IMG/VR virus record: IMGVR_UViG_3300031576_000981
Span: 1 to 24,543 of that record
Strand: one strand, 5' to 3'
Length of the DNA: 24,543 bases
Source of the DNA: a virus
Position 1 is the first letter of the stretch. Each line of letters begins with the position of its first letter. A program made the translations under genes and the position numbers. A model generated the notes under the pieces. That model was not told the DNA's origin. It searched no databases and was given only the letters and a program-made list of their open reading frames with translations. Below, in pieces: positions 7,324 through 20,385 of this stretch.

Positions 7324-7635
7324 ATGGCGGCAGTGACGACGACGTTTGATTTGAGTCCGCTCGACGACTGTCTGTTGGTTTTGCTCGGGCGAGCGCGTGA
7401 GGCCCGGCGGCGGTTTGACCTGCAGGATATTTTGGACGCGCTGCGGGCGATGGGCTGGCGTGGGCTGGAGCGTGAGCAGGTCGTCGGGCGGTTGACATGG
7501 CTCCGCCGATGTGGGCTGCTGCGCGAGGACATGCGCCTCGAGGGCGATTTGTACGTGCGGGTGTGGTCCCAGGCGCGTGGGGTGAGGCAGATGCGTGGCG
7601 GTGTGATGCGCTGGCGTCTGGAAAGGAGGGCGTGA
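7324..7635 (+). CDS. Hypothetical protein (103 aa), possibly winged-helix
   Basis: The ATG at 7324 follows the stop of the previous gene directly. TGATG coupling to the next gene. Confidence 0.55.
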   Translation: MAAVTTTFDLSPLDDCLLVLLGRAREARRRFDLQDILDALRAMGWRGLEREQVVGRLTWLRRCGLLREDMRLEGDLYVRVWSQARGVRQMRGGVMRWRLERRA

Positions 7636-7958
7636 TGCCGTTGAAGAAGGTCGTGGGCGATCTGTTGCGCGGCGCGGCGAGGCAGCCGGGGGTGTTGCAA
7701 TCGGTGACATTGAAGAAGGGGCTGCGGCTGGCGTTCAAGATTGACAATGGTCTGACGTATGGCAAGATCGGGCGTGACCGGGTGTATCCGTCCGAGCGCG
7801 AGTGGAAGGCGGTGATGGAGGCGCTGCCGTACCCGGCGCCGGCGGCGAAGCCGCAGTGGCGCGGCGTGGGGGTGGACACGCGGCGCTGGTTGGGGGCGAG
7901 GTGGCGGACGCCGGAGCAGTTGGAGCTGGGTGTGGCGGGTGCTGTAGATGACACATGA
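7635..7958 (+). CDS. Hypothetical protein (107 aa) containing direct-repeat copy a
   Basis: ATG at 7635 behind AAAGGAGGG. Contains GLTYGKIGRDRVYPS, encoded by 7747-7792. Confidence 0.6.
   Translation: MPLKKVVGDLLRGAARQPGVLQSVTLKKGLRLAFKIDNGLTYGKIGRDRVYPSEREWKAVMEALPYPAPAAKPQWRGVGVDTRRWLGARWRTPEQLELGVAGAVDDT
7747..7792 (+). repeat. 46-bp direct repeat, copy a (45/46 identical to 8560-8605)
   Basis: atggtctgacgtatggcaagatcgggcgtgaccgggtgtatccgtc versus the same sequence with a->c at one position. Confidence 0.9.
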
Positions 7959-8590
7959 AACCGAGACTATTGGATTTGTTCTGCGGAGCAGGTGGAGCGT
8001 GTCGTGGCTATCAGGAAGCCGGCTTCTATGTAGTCGGTGTGGACATCAAACCACAACCGCACTATGTCGGGGACGAATTCTATCAGGCCGATGCGTTGGA
8101 GTTCTGCGCGGCGCGCGGGACAGAGTATGATGTGATACACGCGAGTCCGCCATGCCAATTTGCGAGTGAACTGACACCTGTAGCTTTTCGCGGAAGGCAT
8201 CTCAATCTGATACCGCAGACACGCATCGCGTTGGCAGCAACCGGACAACCTTACATCATCGAGAACGTTGAGAATGGGCGTCGCCATCTCATCAATCCCG
8301 TCATGCTCTGCGGTTCAATGTTCGGCTTGAAAGTTTGGCGTCATCGCTATTTTGAATTGTCATTTCCGCCCAGACTCGTGCCACCCTGCGATCATTCAGG
8401 CGTCCCGGTTTTGATTAGCGGAACACGCCGCCGAGACAACGACCGATATGAATTTTCCGCGCAGGCATGCCGGGAGGCAAGCGGACTGAATTGGATGACG
8501 CGAGCGGAAATGGATCAGGCCATCCCGCCCGCCTACACGCGCTATATCGGTGGCTGGCTATGGTCTGACGTATGGCCAGATCGGGCGTGA
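7955..8590 (+). CDS. DNA (cytosine-5)-methyltransferase, short phage type (211 aa)
   Basis: Motif I DLFCGAGG, motif IV SPPCQ, ENV, and a C-terminal QAIPPAYTRYIG. Visibly lower G+C than the backbone. The last 10 codons and the stop lie in repeat copy b. Confidence 0.85.
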   Translation: MKPRLLDLFCGAGGACRGYQEAGFYVVGVDIKPQPHYVGDEFYQADALEFCAARGTEYDVIHASPPCQFASELTPVAFRGRHLNLIPQTRIALAATGQPYIIENVENGRRHLINPVMLCGSMFGLKVWRHRYFELSFPPRLVPPCDHSGVPVLISGTRRRDNDRYEFSAQACREASGLNWMTRAEMDQAIPPAYTRYIGGWLWSDVWPDRA

Positions 8591-8605
8591 CCGGGTGTAT
8601 CCGTC
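8560..8605 (+). repeat. 46-bp direct repeat, copy b
   Basis: See 7747-7792. It is in the same reading phase relative to ORF-track 8550..8867 as copy a is to CDS 7635..7958. Confidence 0.9.
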
Positions 8606-8633
8606 ATGGATATCTGCAAATGGATATCTGCAA
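8606..8633 (+). repeat. 14-bp tandem ATGGATATCTGCAA x2
   Basis: Two adjacent exact copies, ending 6 nt upstream of the ATG at 8640. Shares the ATCTGCAA core with the tracts upstream of late genes. Confidence 0.85.
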
Positions 8634-8639
8634 AGAGAA

Positions 8640-8867
8640 ATGGACTGGCTTTGGCTGGGCGTGTGCCTGTGCTTGCTCGCGGCCTCGGCGCTGGTGGTTG
8701 CGCCAGTGATGCTGAGCAGTCAGTGGAGTCGGCGTGAGGCAGAGCAAGCGGATGCGGCTGCTACTCGAAGACCTGCGTTATTGGTTGATGATAGCGCGGA
8801 TGGACGCGCGCAATTTGCGGCTGAGCCTGGCGAGGGTGAGGCGGATCGTGGCGGCGATGCGGGCTGA
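8640..8867 (+). CDS. Possible small membrane-anchored protein (75 aa)
   Basis: N-terminal TM helix WLWLGVCLCLLAASALVVAPVML, with GC3 of about 85% over the first 27 codons. GC3 drops to about 60% in the part that overlaps the next ORF. Confidence 0.4.
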   Translation: MDWLWLGVCLCLLAASALVVAPVMLSSQWSRREAEQADAAATRRPALLVDDSADGRAQFAAEPGEGEADRGGDAG

Positions 8868-8892
8868 GCGGTTGGACAGAAAGCCCCCGTGA
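8752..8892 (+). CDS. Possible 46-aa ORF (MRLLLEDLRYWLMIARMDARNLRLSLARVRRIVAAMRAERLDRKPP)
   Basis: Too short for the ORF track and found by hand translation. GC3 is about 83%. Its last 31 codons are duplicated as the C-terminus of the radical-SAM ORF with mostly conservative changes. It ends inside the terminator hairpin. Confidence 0.4.
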   Translation: MRLLLEDLRYWLMIARMDARNLRLSLARVRRIVAAMRAERLDRKPP

Positions 8893-8905
8893 GGGGGCTT
8901 TTGAT
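8796..8905 (+). repeat. 110-bp direct repeat, copy 1 (about 90% identical to 9776-9885)
   Basis: Aligned by eye with about 11 mismatches and no indels. Includes the terminator hairpin. Confidence 0.9.
8880..8902. terminator. Bidirectional intrinsic terminator, AAAGCCCCC-GTGA-GGGGGCTTTT
   Basis: Perfect 9-bp stem flanked by an A-run and a T-run. Confidence 0.7.
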
Positions 8906-8921
8906 ATAGAAAGGTAACAAG

Positions 8922-9872
8922 ATGGGCTGGTCTGGAGGATTTGCAGAATGGATAGAGGGCGACACCGCTTATTTGTCTATCGCCTTCTCATGGCGCTTGC
9001 CGGATGCGTATCAACGTGCTGCTTGGTATCATGCACAGGGCTACCGTGTTAGAGCAGGTGGGCCAGGATTATTCGTGCGCCGAAACTATTTGTCAGAAGT
9101 AGCCGAGATCGGCGGCAGTGAGGTAGATGCATTGATACATCATAATCCTCAAGCGACCATAGCGAGTCGAGGCTGTCCTGTTGGCTGTTATTTTTGCATC
9201 GTTCCGAAAATGGAAGGCTTGCAATTCACACTCCTGCCTGACTTCACACCGCGCCCGATCCTATGTGACAACAATCTATCCGCATTGCCAGTGAAGTATC
9301 AGGAGTTCATCATCGAGAAATATCAGGCATTCAGCGTGACACTCACAGATGCCAACAGCGGTTTTGAGCCGCTGACATTTGATGAAAGCACTTACCACCG
9401 ATGGAAAGCGATCTTGCGCGGGCCATGGCGTTTTGCATTTGACGAAACGAAAGAAGAGCCACAGGTCAGGCGCATGATGACTATTCTCAGAGATGAATCG
9501 CCAAGGCGCAAGCAGGTATATGTTTTAATTGGAAATGAACCGGTAGCAGCCTGTCATGAGCGGGCACAAAAGATCATCGAATGGGGCGGTGAGCCATACC
9601 TTCAGCCATTGATTCCACTCAATGCGCTTGGGCGTGATGATCTTAAAGTTGCCTTTGACTGGACATGGCAGAAACTTAAAGACATGCAACGTTATTACAA
9701 TCGTCATCTCTGGCGTTATTTCCCATTGACAGACTATGTCAATCGGAAAGGCCAACAGCCAATTTTTGTGGGTATGCGGATGGACGCGCGCAATTTGCGG
9801 CTGAGCCTGGAGAAGGTGAAGGGCATCGCGGCGGCGATGCAGGCTGAGCAGTTGGACAGAAAGCCCCCGTGA
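8922..9872 (+). CDS. Radical SAM superfamily enzyme (316 aa), subfamily unknown
   Basis: CxxxCxxC cluster SRGCPVGCYFC (Cys85/89/92, codon for Cys85 at 9174-9176), after an N-terminal domain of about 80 aa. G+C is about 45% in a spot count, against about 80% in a backbone line. AAAGG lies 8 nt before the ATG. Confidence 0.75.
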   Translation: MGWSGGFAEWIEGDTAYLSIAFSWRLPDAYQRAAWYHAQGYRVRAGGPGLFVRRNYLSEVAEIGGSEVDALIHHNPQATIASRGCPVGCYFCIVPKMEGLQFTLLPDFTPRPILCDNNLSALPVKYQEFIIEKYQAFSVTLTDANSGFEPLTFDESTYHRWKAILRGPWRFAFDETKEEPQVRRMMTILRDESPRRKQVYVLIGNEPVAACHERAQKIIEWGGEPYLQPLIPLNALGRDDLKVAFDWTWQKLKDMQRYYNRHLWRYFPLTDYVNRKGQQPIFVGMRMDARNLRLSLEKVKGIAAAMQAEQLDRKPP

Positions 9873-9885
9873 GGGGGCTTTTGAT
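9776..9885 (+). repeat. 110-bp direct repeat, copy 2
   Basis: See 8796-8905. It ends 1 nt before the stop codon of the last late gene (9886). Confidence 0.9.
9860..9882. terminator. Bidirectional intrinsic terminator between the convergent rightward and late operons
   Basis: Identical hairpin to 8880-8902, with an A-run and a T-run on either side. Confidence 0.75.
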
Positions 9886-10224
9886 TTAGCAGATGACGAA
9901 CTGCCCGCCGTGGAGCCAGAGTTCGCGGCCAGGCCGGCCGGGCGCGGGGTAGACCTTCCACCACGAGCCGCGGATTTCGTGCACGTCCACGAAGAGCGGC
10001 GGGTTGACCGTCCAGCGGCGCGCCTCGGGGTCGGGAGCGACGTAGACCGGCACGGGCGCGTTGACGTAGGCGCGCACGACCAGGAGCGGCGGCGCTTCGA
10101 GGAGGGTCGGCGGGGCAGGGGCCTCGACGATGTTGAGCGTGAGCGTGGCGGCGACGGCGTGCGCGAGCTGGGCGGGGTCGAGGTCGCCTTCGACGGCGAG
10201 GGTGAGGAATTGGACGCGGGGCAT
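9886..10224 (-). CDS. Hypothetical late protein (112 aa)
   Basis: Trimmed to the ATG at 10224, in an ATGA overlap with the upstream gene. Last gene of the late operon. Confidence 0.6.
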   Translation of the reverse strand: MPRVQFLTLAVEGDLDPAQLAHAVAATLTLNIVEAPAPPTLLEAPPLLVVRAYVNAPVPVYVAPDPEARRWTVNPPLFVDVHEIRGSWWKVYPAPGRPGRELWLHGGQFVIC

Positions 10225-18150: not shown

Positions 18151-20385
18151 TTATGCCACGTTGCTCTTGTGCATGGGCCGGAAGTCGGCGACGCCGACGG
18201 CGACGTGGTGCCGGACTTTGACTCTAAATTCGTCGTTCATGAACACGGCGGGGGAGAGTTCATCGCCGGCCACGAAGATTTCGGGCATCAGGCCGAAGGC
18301 CTCGCCGATGCAGACGCCGGGGACGAGCATCGGGTCGCAGACGGCGGCCCAGTCGGTGGCGTCGGTCCACTCGGGGACGGTGATGGGCACGACCGCGCCG
18401 CCGTAGGTCGGGCCTCCGGAGGCGGCAATGCCGGCTTCGACGACGCCTGACCAGCGCGGGATGAACAGCGCTTCGGCCTGGCCTTTGAGCGCGCGCGGGA
18501 CCAGGCAGAACTTGGGATCGAGTGCGAGCTTCGCGCCCGTGCCGATGTAGCCGGCGTCGTTCGAGACGAGCATGGGTTGGTTGTAGACGGCGGCGGCGAC
18601 GACGTCCCAGGCGGCGAAGGTGGTTCCGAGCGCAGTCGTGAGCAGGTTCAAGTGGCCACCCGCGGTCGTGACGGCTGTGCTGTTGAAGAGCGCGCCGCCG
18701 TCTACGAGCGTGGGGCCGATGGCCGCGTTGTCGGTAAACAGGTCGGCGACTTCCTTGGAGATGTTGCGGATGCCGGCGTTGGCGAGCTCGCGCGGGGTCT
18801 GGACGATCTTGCGCGTGTCGTCGTTGATGATGTCCTCCAGGTCGATCCCGACATAGCCGCCGTACTTGACGAACGAGCTGAGCTCGTGGCCCTCGCCGAT
18901 CATGAGGGGCGTGTACTCCGCGCCCTTGGCCACGACGGGCAGGCTGGCGATCGTGCCGGTGATGAGCCAGCGGATCTGCTGCAGGTTGGTGAAGTGCTCG
19001 ACGTGGGCGATCTTGGTCCACCAGTCGTAGCCGGCGCGGCCGAGTTCGTTCCAGCGGGTGACGACGGCCTTGTTCATCACGTTGGCGACGATGGACGCGA
19101 ACGAGCCAGTGTTGAGTTGGGCGTGCTCGGCGTAGTAGCCGCCGTGAAAGTCGCGGTCGCCCGTGAACATCAGGTAGAGCTGGCGAATGCCGTCGAGCTT
19201 GGCGACTTTGAGGGCCTGCAGGGCCGGATCGCGGGCGACGTTGAACAGGTCGTGCACGGCGGCCCGGATGGCGTCTTCGCCGTTGAACATGGCGCTGATG
19301 CGCCCGGGCCCCTGCACCGCAGCGCCGGCGGTGAGCTGACTGACGAGCTCGCGCGCGTCGTCGATCGCGGCCGTGAGCTCGGGCGGGTCAAAGACGCGGC
19401 CGGCAAACTGCTTGCGGACGGCGGCTTGCGATGGGGCAGGGAGCTTCGAGGCGGCCAGGCCGGTGTCGAGCAGGTGGGCGCAGGCCTGCAGCCGGATGGC
19501 GCGCATCTTTTCGACCTCGGCGGTCATGGCGGTCTGCTGCTCCTGCGCGTTGAGGATCACGCGCAGCGCGTCGGCGTCCTTCTGCATCTGCGCCTGGGCG
19601 GTGCTGGAACCAGCCGCGGGCGCGGGCGGCGCGGCTGGCGCGGGGGAAGTGTTGTCGCTCATGTGATTTAGCCTCCACTCTTGCGACTGATTCAGAGCGC
19701 GGAGAAATGCCCCGCCGCGCGCGGGGTCGTACACCAGGTCGAGCGTGGCGATACGCAGGATTTGGATCACTTCAACGCCGGAGGCGGTGAAGTACAGGTC
19801 GAGCGAGAATCCGACGTCGGGCTTGGGTTCGGCCTCGGAGAGCATCTCCTGTCCCAGCTGGCGCACGAGCGGGCCGCTGGGGCCCAGCGGGCGGAGCGAG
19901 AGCGTAATGCCCTGCAGCTCTTCGTCCCACTGCTGGTTGTAGTAGGAGCCGCCCAGGTCGCGGAGATCGCGCATCCACCAGGAATGGTTGACGAAGCAGT
20001 CGAGGTGATCCCACAGCGGCAGGCTGGCCTGGATGGCCGCGGCGGAGAAGTTCCAGCCGTTGGCGTGGCCGGCGGTGATGCCGACGACCTCGAAGTCGCC
20101 TTCGCGGGTGAGGCGGGCGCGGGCGCTGAAGGCGGCGTGCTGTTCGACAAGTTCGGGCATCGTGGACTCCTTCTTGCGGGTTGGGATGCTGGAGAGGTCG
20201 CCGCTTTCCGGCGCGTCGGTTTCTTCCATCTCACAGCGGCAATTGTCGCCGCAGAGTGTGCCCTTGCCAGGGGCCCACAGGTGGGACTTCTGCCAATCGG
20301 GCCGGGTGTGGACCTGACCATTGGCCGTGCGGCAGGTATCGCAGGTGTCGGCGTCCACCCTGGCTTTCCACTCGTACTTTTTCAC
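18151..20385 (-). CDS. Fusion ORF (744 codons): gp7/MuF-type Zn-ribbon tail + prohead protease-like + coiled-coil scaffold-like + major capsid protein
   Basis: aa 1-55: CDTC...GDNCRCEME. aa about 80-235: CFVNHSWW...LDLVYDPARGG, which is protease-like. aa about 242-345: Ala/Gln-rich helical. C-terminal about 400 aa is capsid-like. GTG start in a GTGA overlap with the portal stop. Confidence 0.7.
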   Translation of the reverse strand: MKKYEWKARVDADTCDTCRTANGQVHTRPDWQKSHLWAPGKGTLCGDNCRCEMEETDAPESGDLSSIPTRKKESTMPELVEQHAAFSARARLTREGDFEVVGITAGHANGWNFSAAAIQASLPLWDHLDCFVNHSWWMRDLRDLGGSYYNQQWDEELQGITLSLRPLGPSGPLVRQLGQEMLSEAEPKPDVGFSLDLYFTASGVEVIQILRIATLDLVYDPARGGAFLRALNQSQEWRLNHMSDNTSPAPAAPPAPAAGSSTAQAQMQKDADALRVILNAQEQQTAMTAEVEKMRAIRLQACAHLLDTGLAASKLPAPSQAAVRKQFAGRVFDPPELTAAIDDARELVSQLTAGAAVQGPGRISAMFNGEDAIRAAVHDLFNVARDPALQALKVAKLDGIRQLYLMFTGDRDFHGGYYAEHAQLNTGSFASIVANVMNKAVVTRWNELGRAGYDWWTKIAHVEHFTNLQQIRWLITGTIASLPVVAKGAEYTPLMIGEGHELSSFVKYGGYVGIDLEDIINDDTRKIVQTPRELANAGIRNISKEVADLFTDNAAIGPTLVDGGALFNSTAVTTAGGHLNLLTTALGTTFAAWDVVAAAVYNQPMLVSNDAGYIGTGAKLALDPKFCLVPRALKGQAEALFIPRWSGVVEAGIAASGGPTYGGAVVPITVPEWTDATDWAAVCDPMLVPGVCIGEAFGLMPEIFVAGDELSPAVFMNDEFRVKVRHHVAVGVADFRPMHKSNVA

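Follow-up and report, generated by a model that had tools for sequence, protein, structure and literature searches.

A Radical-SAM Gene Imported Singly into a Temperate Phage and Bracketed by Repeats That Are Most Likely Scars of Its Acquisition

Introduction

How does a single gene of deviant base composition come to lie between two long direct repeats in a phage genome, and what might its product do there? The question is raised by the IMG/VR virus record IMGVR_UViG_3300031576_000981 (positions 1 to 24,543; this whole stretch of 24,543 nt is called the window below), in which a gene for a radical S-adenosylmethionine (radical-SAM) protein follows a gene for a DNA methyltransferase (methylase) and is bracketed by two copies of a 114-nt repeat. 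The window is from a temperate tailed phage, with integrase, terminase, portal and capsid-protease all encoded in it. We favor, with moderate confidence, the explanation that one gene was imported, that the repeats are a recombination scar, and that the product is an accessory enzyme of nucleic-acid modification or anti-restriction that works alone.

A Single Gene of Low G+C Was Imported Recently

The gene, the segment that holds it and the repeats around it are located as follows.

8922..9872, plus strand: radical-SAM open reading frame (ORF), 316 aa, with the family core at residues 1-285 (ORF list, homologs and model)
8910..9775, plus strand: imported low-G+C segment, a 12-nt leader with an AAAGG ribosome-binding site (RBS) followed by radical-SAM codons 1-285 (G+C profile; limits of nucleotide homology)
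8796..8909, no strand: 114-nt direct repeat, copy 1 (repeat search)
9776..9889, no strand: 114-nt direct repeat, copy 2, high in G+C like the resident genome (repeat search, G+C profile)

The G+C content of the whole window is 65.5% and that of the flanks of the radical-SAM gene 64%, whereas the gene itself has 49.0% (46-51% in 200-nt windows; 0.490 vs. 0.642). We considered whether low G+C is a trait of the family and rejected this, since elsewhere the G+C of the gene follows that of the host genome: over 65 family loci the correlation of gene with flank is r = 0.90, the two differ by -0.011 on average, and the window is the extreme outlier among them (gene minus flank, -0.152). Because gene G+C follows the flanks across the family, the low G+C here marks a recent transfer. 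Between the repeats lie 866 bp of unique DNA, and the low-G+C block coincides exactly with 8910-9775. The closest relatives, with 76-81% protein identity, are on contigs of 52-59% G+C, and nucleotide similarity to them (72-75%) is confined to 8922 to ~9761; as this homology stops at the ends of the ORF, it was the bare gene that was transferred. The radical-SAM gene is a single recent low-G+C import.

An original prediction, made from the letters of the window and a list of its ORFs, had already proposed a low-G+C import. That proposal stands, with its figure of about 45% replaced by the measured 49.0%. It had further proposed that the gene came in together with flanking homology from a related phage, which does not hold in that form: the foreign low-G+C DNA is the ORF alone, and because repeat copy 2 is as high in G+C as resident DNA, the gene must have arrived without low-G+C flanking homology.

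The Flanking Repeats and the Foreign Tail

The insertion point is the meeting place of the rightward early genes and the leftward virion operon, and the insertion lies between a small ORF with its terminator (ORF A) and the end of the late operon. The features concerned are these.

8734..8892, plus strand: orphan small ORF A, 52 aa from GTG or 46 aa from ATG at 8752; repeat copy 1 holds its stop and the 31 codons before it; G+C at third codon positions (GC3) 0.83
8880..8901, no strand: hairpin 1, with a 10-bp G+C-rich stem (folding, repeat search, consensus scan)
9777..9872, plus strand: foreign C-terminal tail of 31 aa and stop, encoded by repeat copy 2 in the same frame as ORF A (absent from homologs)
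9860..9881, no strand: hairpin 2 (folding, repeat search, consensus scan)
9886..10224, minus strand: final gene of the convergent operon of late (virion) genes, with its stop codon within the end of repeat copy 2 (ORF list; gene call of 112 aa in the European Nucleotide Archive, ENA)

The two 114-nt copies are spaced 980 nt apart and are identical, ungapped, at 105 of 114 positions (92%); a blastn comparison of the upstream with the downstream flank gives E = 1.6e-41. The original description of 110-bp repeats about 90% identical without indels was thus sound and slightly conservative. Both copies hold the hairpin AAAGCCCCCGTGAGGGGGCTTT, which occurs exactly twice in the window and in none of 100 shuffles, with folding energies of -20.8 and -24.7 kcal/mol (z = -3.0 and -4.5). 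A hairpin in each repeat had been foreseen as a bidirectional terminator; the hairpins are there, and a consensus terminator scan calls them terminator-like on the minus strand only. The terminator-like hairpin 3' of the radical-SAM gene is a copy of the resident one.

Since the window is a single short-read metagenome contig, with an abrupt jump in composition and no relative that confirms its arrangement, the cassette or the duplication might be a chimera of metagenome assembly. We consider this very improbable. The two copies differ at nine positions, the ORF is intact and in frame through both junctions, comparable scars are found in unrelated contigs (see below), and a second assembly record of different length (ENA ERZ27247320; 24,462 bp vs. 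24,543 for the window), possibly from the same reads, agrees with the window at 100% identity across the 19,435 nt retrieved, both repeats included. This match makes a trivial assembler artifact unlikely and upholds the doubt about a simple assembly duplication that was voiced at the outset.

The second repeat has altered the protein. Its sequence reads ...NRKGQQPIFVG and continues for 31 residues out of repeat copy 2, so that it ends in RMDARNLRLSLEKVKGIAAAMQAEQLDRKPP, 77% identical to the last 31 residues of ORF A. Close homologs stop 3-9 variable residues past a conserved NRKGxxPxF, and homologs in general end at about residue 285-295; thus the family core is complete, and codons 286-316 are foreign. 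The original observation that the enzyme ends in a diverged copy of the tail of ORF A is in this way confirmed. The tail forms a lower-confidence helix in the AlphaFold2 model discussed below (predicted local distance difference test, pLDDT, 64-76).

ORF A itself has the GC3 typical of resident genes. It has no homolog among 5.8 billion proteins, where its sole match is a 46-aa gene call (P0327) on a Joint Genome Institute contig as long as the window itself, and in 72 non-redundant loci of the family the 700 nt to either side of the radical-SAM gene contain no small ORF that is conserved. [quoted passage not shown] ORF A does adjoin the enzyme and has the tail sequence in common with it. The idea is nevertheless left without comparative support, because ORF A is an orphan that is not found beside other family members; moreover, the enzyme has no SPASM or RRE domain, homologs end at about residue 285, and a terminator-like hairpin stands between the two genes. 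We regard it as the least probable of the alternatives, to be given almost no weight.

Boundary Repeats in Other Loci and a Model of Acquisition

Repeats at the boundaries of family genes are found in other loci as well. On L056, an unrelated contig from a metagenome-assembled genome (MAG) of Hydrogenedentota, a family member 32% identical to the window protein lies 36 nt after an N6/N4 methylase gene and ends in an exact 31-nt copy of the last nine codons and stop of that methylase (AELAQGRLF*; 389-419 and 1295-1325), read in the same frame. In L051 (7981-7997/8823-8839) and L026 (7950-7968/8918-8936) each end of the gene has a copy of the RBS and start codon, a 75-nt intergenic unit is repeated around the family gene in L048 (7282-7353/9558-9632), and in L021 partly similar genes on either side (7375-7995 vs. 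8896-9324) have two short segments in common, in the same order. Exact boundary repeats of at least 17 nt are found at 4 of 54 family genes. Of 304 other, similarly sized genes from those loci, which served as the control, only one has such repeats, and that one is the methylase of the window. The repeats are specific to each locus, come from the local neighbor gene, span 17 to 114 nt and have no motif in common. Since they differ from locus to locus and stem from the neighbor, a dedicated recombination site is unlikely, and the 114-nt repeats of the window are most likely an acquisition scar and not a functional device.

The contrary view would make the gene the cargo of a dedicated mobile cassette (integron-like attC, PeSL-like, or a homing element), with the repeats as its recombination sites. 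Such a cassette would fit the enrichment of direct repeats at family members, the travel of the gene as a single-ORF unit, and the presence of a tyrosine recombinase and a GIY-YIG ORF elsewhere in the window. It does not fit the diversity of the repeats just described or the restriction of the hairpin to two places in the window, and the cassette contains no recombinase or nuclease, no RYYYAAC...GTTRRRY pair of attC cores and no promoter in its repeated unit. We judge it improbable. Two particular forms of it were rejected. An integron cassette would need paired attC cores, and each copy holds one GTTGGAC with no partner core on the same strand. The PeSL cassettes of T4-type phages are non-essential genes between repeated terminator stem-loop units, recombination between which inserts, deletes or circularizes single genes, and PeSLs form a dispersed family with a strong early promoter (PMC2839356, PMC4122927). 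The window gene is likewise bracketed by repeated units with a terminator-like stem-loop; however, its unit is present only twice, contains no promoter-like site and is the 3' end of a neighboring gene.

We propose that the scar would have arisen in two steps. First, an out-of-register exchange between two related high-G+C phages would have placed a second copy of the upstream gene and its terminator behind the newcomer; single-crossover insertion of a circularized fragment would be a topologically equivalent alternative. The 8% divergence between the 114-nt copies would then be the divergence of the two parent phages. Second, the redundant copy would have been eroded to the part that was needed, which would be the terminator in the window, the RBS and start in L051 and L026, and the stop codon in L056. 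In the window, this erosion would have fused the last 31 codons of the redundant copy in frame to the enzyme.

The resulting arrangement resembles a moron, in that an extra gene of deviant composition (G+C 0.49 vs. 0.64) lies between resident transcription units, next to a terminator; it differs in that the gene has no promoter of its own that could be found, with no sigma-70-like site upstream. Morons and mosaic junctions can arise by illegitimate or homeologous recombination. Compared with such junctions, the window differs in keeping a partial duplication of the flank, a kind of scar that is usually lost.

The Neighboring Methylase Has a Repeat of Its Own

Upstream of the radical-SAM gene lies a second set of features of the same kind.

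7635..7958, plus strand: gene X (107 aa), a resident phage gene (distant homologs; 107-aa gene call in the ENA record)
7742..7792, no strand: 51-nt direct repeat, copy 1, within gene X, 94% identical to 8555-8605 at a spacing of 813
7955..8590, plus strand: short C5-type DNA methyltransferase, 211 aa (phrog_363, 7.6e-34), its last 12 codons from 51-nt copy 2
8555..8605, no strand: 51-nt direct repeat, copy 2, at the end of and after the methylase gene (repeat search; comparison with gene X)
8606..8633, no strand: exact 14-nt tandem duplication (ATGGATATCTGCAA twice), directly after 51-nt copy 2

The methylase matches phrog_363 "DNA methyltransferase" at 7.6e-34 and PF00145 at 15.8 bits, below the cut-off; its translation shows FCGAGG, PPCQ and ENV motifs, its relatives are found in mycobacteriophages and IMG/VR, and its G+C of 0.52-0.57 is lower than that of its surroundings. 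The 51-nt repeat brackets the 3' part of gene X and the whole methylase gene. Homologs of gene X in capsid-related phage loci have in common the motif R[DN]xVYPSxxEW and its continuation, and copy 2 is for this reason a fragment left behind by an X-like gene. The last 12 codons of the methylase are read from it, in a frame other than that of gene X. As the methylase has a flanking repeat of its own, it appears to have been acquired in like manner, either earlier or in parallel, which indicates that methylase and radical-SAM gene were acquired separately in the window.

Beyond the 51-nt repeat, the tandem duplication of ATGGATATCTGCAA shifts the frame into an ORF at 8640-8867, which continues as a putative membrane protein (MDWLWLGVCLCLL...).

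A Compact, Unnamed Radical-SAM Family

One further feature concerns the protein itself.

9174..9197, plus strand: CxxxCxxC cluster motif (C85, C89 and C92; GCPVGCYFC), invariant in two alignments

The three cysteines are invariant in alignments of 41 and 45 diverse homologs, as are W24, G46, G84, D116, N118, R170 and W247, with N117 invariant in the alignment of 45; ahead of residue 85 the same alignments show no cysteine that is conserved. Among 5.8 billion proteins, 3,242 matches were found, the best 65-81% identical and nearly all 272-312 aa long; a profile search gave 3,929 matches (clusters), and an exhaustive HMMER scan of representatives at 50% identity gave 518. By its sequence the protein is a member of a large, tightly conserved and unnamed family. 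Pfam PF04055 (Radical_SAM) scores the window protein at 14.1 bits, below its cut-off of 29.5, and is matched by 17 of 41 homologs at E up to 0.01 (best 2.7e-7). The B12-binding domain (PF02310) is matched by 9 of the 41, the longer ones, and not by the window protein. The best NCBIfam matches of some members, at ~1e-7, are the B12-binding radical-SAM families TIGR04072 and TIGR04014, and among PHROGs the match is phrog_9298 "radical SAM domain protein" (1e-9). A search of the PDB with the single protein sequence found nothing.

An AlphaFold2 model built on the 45 sequences (pLDDT 90.7; predicted template modeling score 0.83) contains a partial TIM-barrel radical-SAM core. Its best Foldseek matches in the PDB are AprD4 (6fd2; E 2.4e-6, template modeling score 0.57 on the query), MgmA (9ccb), MiaB (7mjw) and MtaB, all with probability 1.00, and then LipA with 0.99; all are radical-SAM enzymes. 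The N-domain has ~75 residues, with too few strands for a full Rossmann fold, and in the model looks like a truncated version of the B12-binding-like domain that longer relatives keep. A CxxxCxxC radical-SAM enzyme with an N-terminal domain of about 80 aa is what the original prediction had described, and the invariant cysteines, the fold and the model bear it out. Profiles and Foldseek likewise agree with its placement outside the radical-SAM families usual in phages.

Each of the nearest known systems differs from the window protein in telling ways. AprD4, a radical-SAM 1,2-diol dehydratase and the best fold match, also has an N-terminal Rossmann-like domain followed by a CxxxCxxC core; however, it has 454 aa with a full N-domain and C-terminal elements, as against a core of 285 aa in the window protein, identity is 14%, and no aminoglycoside pathway genes lie near the window gene. 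The class B radical-SAM methyltransferases (MgmA 9ccb/TIGR04014, TokK) are the best sequence-profile matches (9ccb at E 0.016 among PDB profiles), whereas the window protein has no PF02310 match and its N-domain is not a complete cobalamin-binding Rossmann domain; with no B12-binding match and an N-domain short of the full fold, use of cobalamin is doubtful. MiaB/RimO (7mjw, 4jc0), the third-best fold match, has a similar motif context around the cluster, and the window family differs in having neither the N-domain cysteines of the UPF0004 type for a second cluster nor a C-terminal TRAM domain. No QueE, viperin or NrdG profile is among the Pfam and NCBIfam matches of the 41 members, viral models in BFVD include QueE and other viral radical-SAM proteins only at E 0.02 or worse, and spore photoproduct lyase (SPL) is not among the top 50 fold matches in the PDB. 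An identity as QueE, viperin, NrdG, a methylthiotransferase or an SPL-like enzyme is accordingly rejected by profiles, fold and motifs. The family is a compact, unnamed variant within the radical-SAM superfamily, and its activity is a prediction from the modeled fold. Our literature searches, which covered the family, DUF5131, and phage systems with radical-SAM enzymes and methylases, found no description of it.

All contexts of the family that we examined are phage-like, with terminases, lysis genes, DnaB, SNF2 helicases, a Cas4-like exonuclease, ASCH, DUF5131 and DNA methylases as neighbors. Species-representative genomes with the gene include Alphaproteobacteria (Rhizobium, Methylobacterium, Chelatococcus, Sphingomonas, Azospirillum and Roseibium), Dehalococcoidia, Brevibacillus and many other phyla; cultured carriers are Rhizobium sp. 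BK313, Methylobacterium haplocladii NBRC 107714, Brevibacillus ginsengisoli KCTC 13938, Chelatococcus reniformis and Azospirillum picis. Searches by tblastn of 50,697 isolated phage genomes and of 72,556 plasmids gave no match to the enzyme.

Methylase Adjacency and Possible Functions

In 15 of the 72 non-redundant loci the radical-SAM gene has a DNA methylase at a distance of 500 nt or less, where 4.6 such loci would be expected under uniform placement of genes (binomial p = 7e-6). The adjoining methylases belong to three Pfam families, C5, N6_N4 (often fused to ParB) and D12. DUF5131, taken as the control gene, is adjacent in 1 locus vs. 2.4 expected. Statistics on co-occurrence with methylases had been named as a check in the original prediction, and they show a significant excess.

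That prediction had also raised the idea of a two-gene module from the position of the gene directly after a methylase. In its strict form, the methylase would make a substrate base that the radical enzyme then elaborates, and the two would be obligate partners in hypermodification. The adjacency across the family is in keeping with this, as are the loci in which the two genes overlap by a few bases (L004, L020 and L052) or lie 1-5 bases apart (L050 and L058). What speaks against it is that the partner methylases are chemically different (C5-cytosine, ParB-fused N4/N6, and Dam-type D12), that any methylase at all is found within 8 kb in only about 40% of loci, and that the radical-SAM gene is present in none of 56 viral loci anchored on the methylase family of the window. 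In the window itself, 332 nt that include a terminator-like hairpin separate the two genes, and the flanking repeats of the one are not those of the other. The family-wide link to methylases therefore holds, and the obligate pair, to which we assign a low probability, does not. Because methylases are in excess without obligate pairing, a stand-alone accessory enzyme is favored, one that would use a 5'-deoxyadenosyl radical on its substrate and would act by itself and not as the necessary partner of a methylase. That such an enzyme serves a DNA-modification or anti-restriction gene set is a tentative proposal; a function in the modification of nucleic acid, probably DNA, or in anti-restriction is only weakly suggested, by the methylase excess and by neighbors that belong to replication and modification (DnaB, SNF2 helicase, Cas4-like exonuclease, ASCH and DUF5131).

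About equally likely as membership of a DNA-modification set is a target other than DNA, namely tRNA or rRNA, a host protein or a small molecule, in which case the gene might tune translation, act against host defense or serve as an auxiliary metabolic gene. The fold neighbors point this way, as they act on a small molecule (AprD4), a protein (MgmA) and tRNA (MiaB) and none on DNA; most loci have no methylase nearby, and the recent arrival of the gene at a boundary between genes, in the window as in L056, fits co-location in a hot spot. Set against such a target are the lack of TRAM or any other RNA-binding domain, of conserved N-domain cysteines for an auxiliary cluster and of a conserved partner or substrate gene adjoining, together with the adjacency above expectation to methylases of three Pfam families, which the DUF5131 control does not show. 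We hold this alternative to be possible.

More specific, and in our view rather unlikely, is the idea that the family is a new class of phage DNA-modifying enzyme that would install a mark by radical chemistry, such as C-methylation or another carbon-centered change of base or sugar. A precedent exists in gp53 of phage M6, an SPL-like radical-SAM isomerase of thymidine hypermodification that has been termed the first known case of a radical-SAM enzyme that installs a DNA modification; it models on SPL, and its gene cluster includes a 5-hydroxymethyldeoxyuridine kinase, an amino-acid transferase and a pyridoxal phosphate (PLP) enzyme (PMC8989533). The window family differs from it, with no SPL in the top 50 folds and no such set of kinase, transferase and PLP enzyme as neighbors.

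Evidence Weighing Against the Favored Explanation

Several observations weigh against the explanation that we favor, in its function, its expression or its history. As to a role in DNA modification, no nucleic-acid-binding domain was detected in the protein, no other hypermodification genes lie nearby, the median isoelectric point of the family is only 8.5, and a methylase is present within ~8 kb in just 28 of the 72 loci (about 40%), with three more in gene tables; adjacency to methylases could reflect insertion hot spots that accessory genes have in common. As to expression, there is no promoter-like site between hairpin 1 and the radical-SAM start codon 20 nt further on, and for this reason expression requires read-through.

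As to history, neither an empty site nor a donor phage was found by the hairpin pattern in IMG/VR, by the 413-aa late protein in IMG/VR and metagenome contigs, or by gene X in IMG/VR; a 24-mer of the repeat had no match in metagenome contigs, a search that also missed the contig of the window. The order of events is for this reason inferred. Relatives were found for the capsid and for a 301-aa virion protein, and all of them lack ORF A, the radical-SAM gene and the late-operon end.

The distribution of differences between the two 114-nt copies is also not what a simple neutral scar predicts: eight of nine cluster in 8831-8870, and each of the seven codons altered ahead of the stop is changed non-synonymously in the frame that ORF A and the tail use. 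Of the seven changes within the span of the overlapping ORF 8640-8867, five are synonymous in its own frame. Position-specific G+C follows the frame of ORF 8640-8867 up to ~8750 and that of ORF A (8734-8892) from ~8720 onward. This conflict of frames over 8640-8892 could reflect overlapping genes, one frameshifted gene, or a G-to-A bias at NGG.

Other Features of the Window and the Family

A small ORF at 1593-1916 on the minus strand contains a GIY-YIG nuclease domain (Pfam E 1.7e-5) and could be a free-standing homing-type endonuclease of the same phage. The 744-aa protein at 18151-20385 (minus strand) matches head maturation protease and major capsid families (phrog_133, phrog_4523 and PF25209), which indicates a fused protease-capsid gene, and its relatives are common in IMG/VR at 45-84% identity. 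Scans of the whole window found no Rfam match and no tRNA, and PADLOC defense models gave no meaningful match.

Within the family, locus L131 (3433-3873) has a long-form member with a fuller N-domain, right after a DUF6884 gene and a gene for a DnaA_N-containing protein. The Dehalococcoidia MAG CBDFJL01 has three family copies at different places (L031 and L039 on contig 3, L046 on contig 1), which suggests several related prophages or a multi-copy element. DUF5131 (PF07505), which is named once in a radical-SAM resource paper (PMC9477430), lies within ~8 kb of the radical-SAM gene in 20 of the 72 loci, always on the same strand and not adjacent (L001, L012, L015, L018-L021, L023, L025, L027, L030, L031, L034, L037, L039, L045-L047, L051 and L132), and in 5 of the 56 methylase-anchored control loci. 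As a close partner it was rejected, given that it comes within 500 nt no more often than expected.

Conclusions

The family is present in thousands of uncultured phage and prophage sequences, shows an enrichment next to DNA methylases, and is covered by no curated family. Its core is small (285 aa) and easy to express, which together with the enrichment makes it a tractable candidate for new nucleic-acid chemistry. If the family were indeed a new class of DNA-modifying enzyme, phages would be gathering a radical-SAM enzyme alongside various classes of orphan methylase, and would gain from it one more layer of anti-restriction.

The window keeps two adjacent and legible scars of acquisition, and it is thus a rare snapshot of single accessory genes entering a phage genome. 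These scars also illustrate how the entry of a gene can add a foreign C-terminal tail to the incoming protein.

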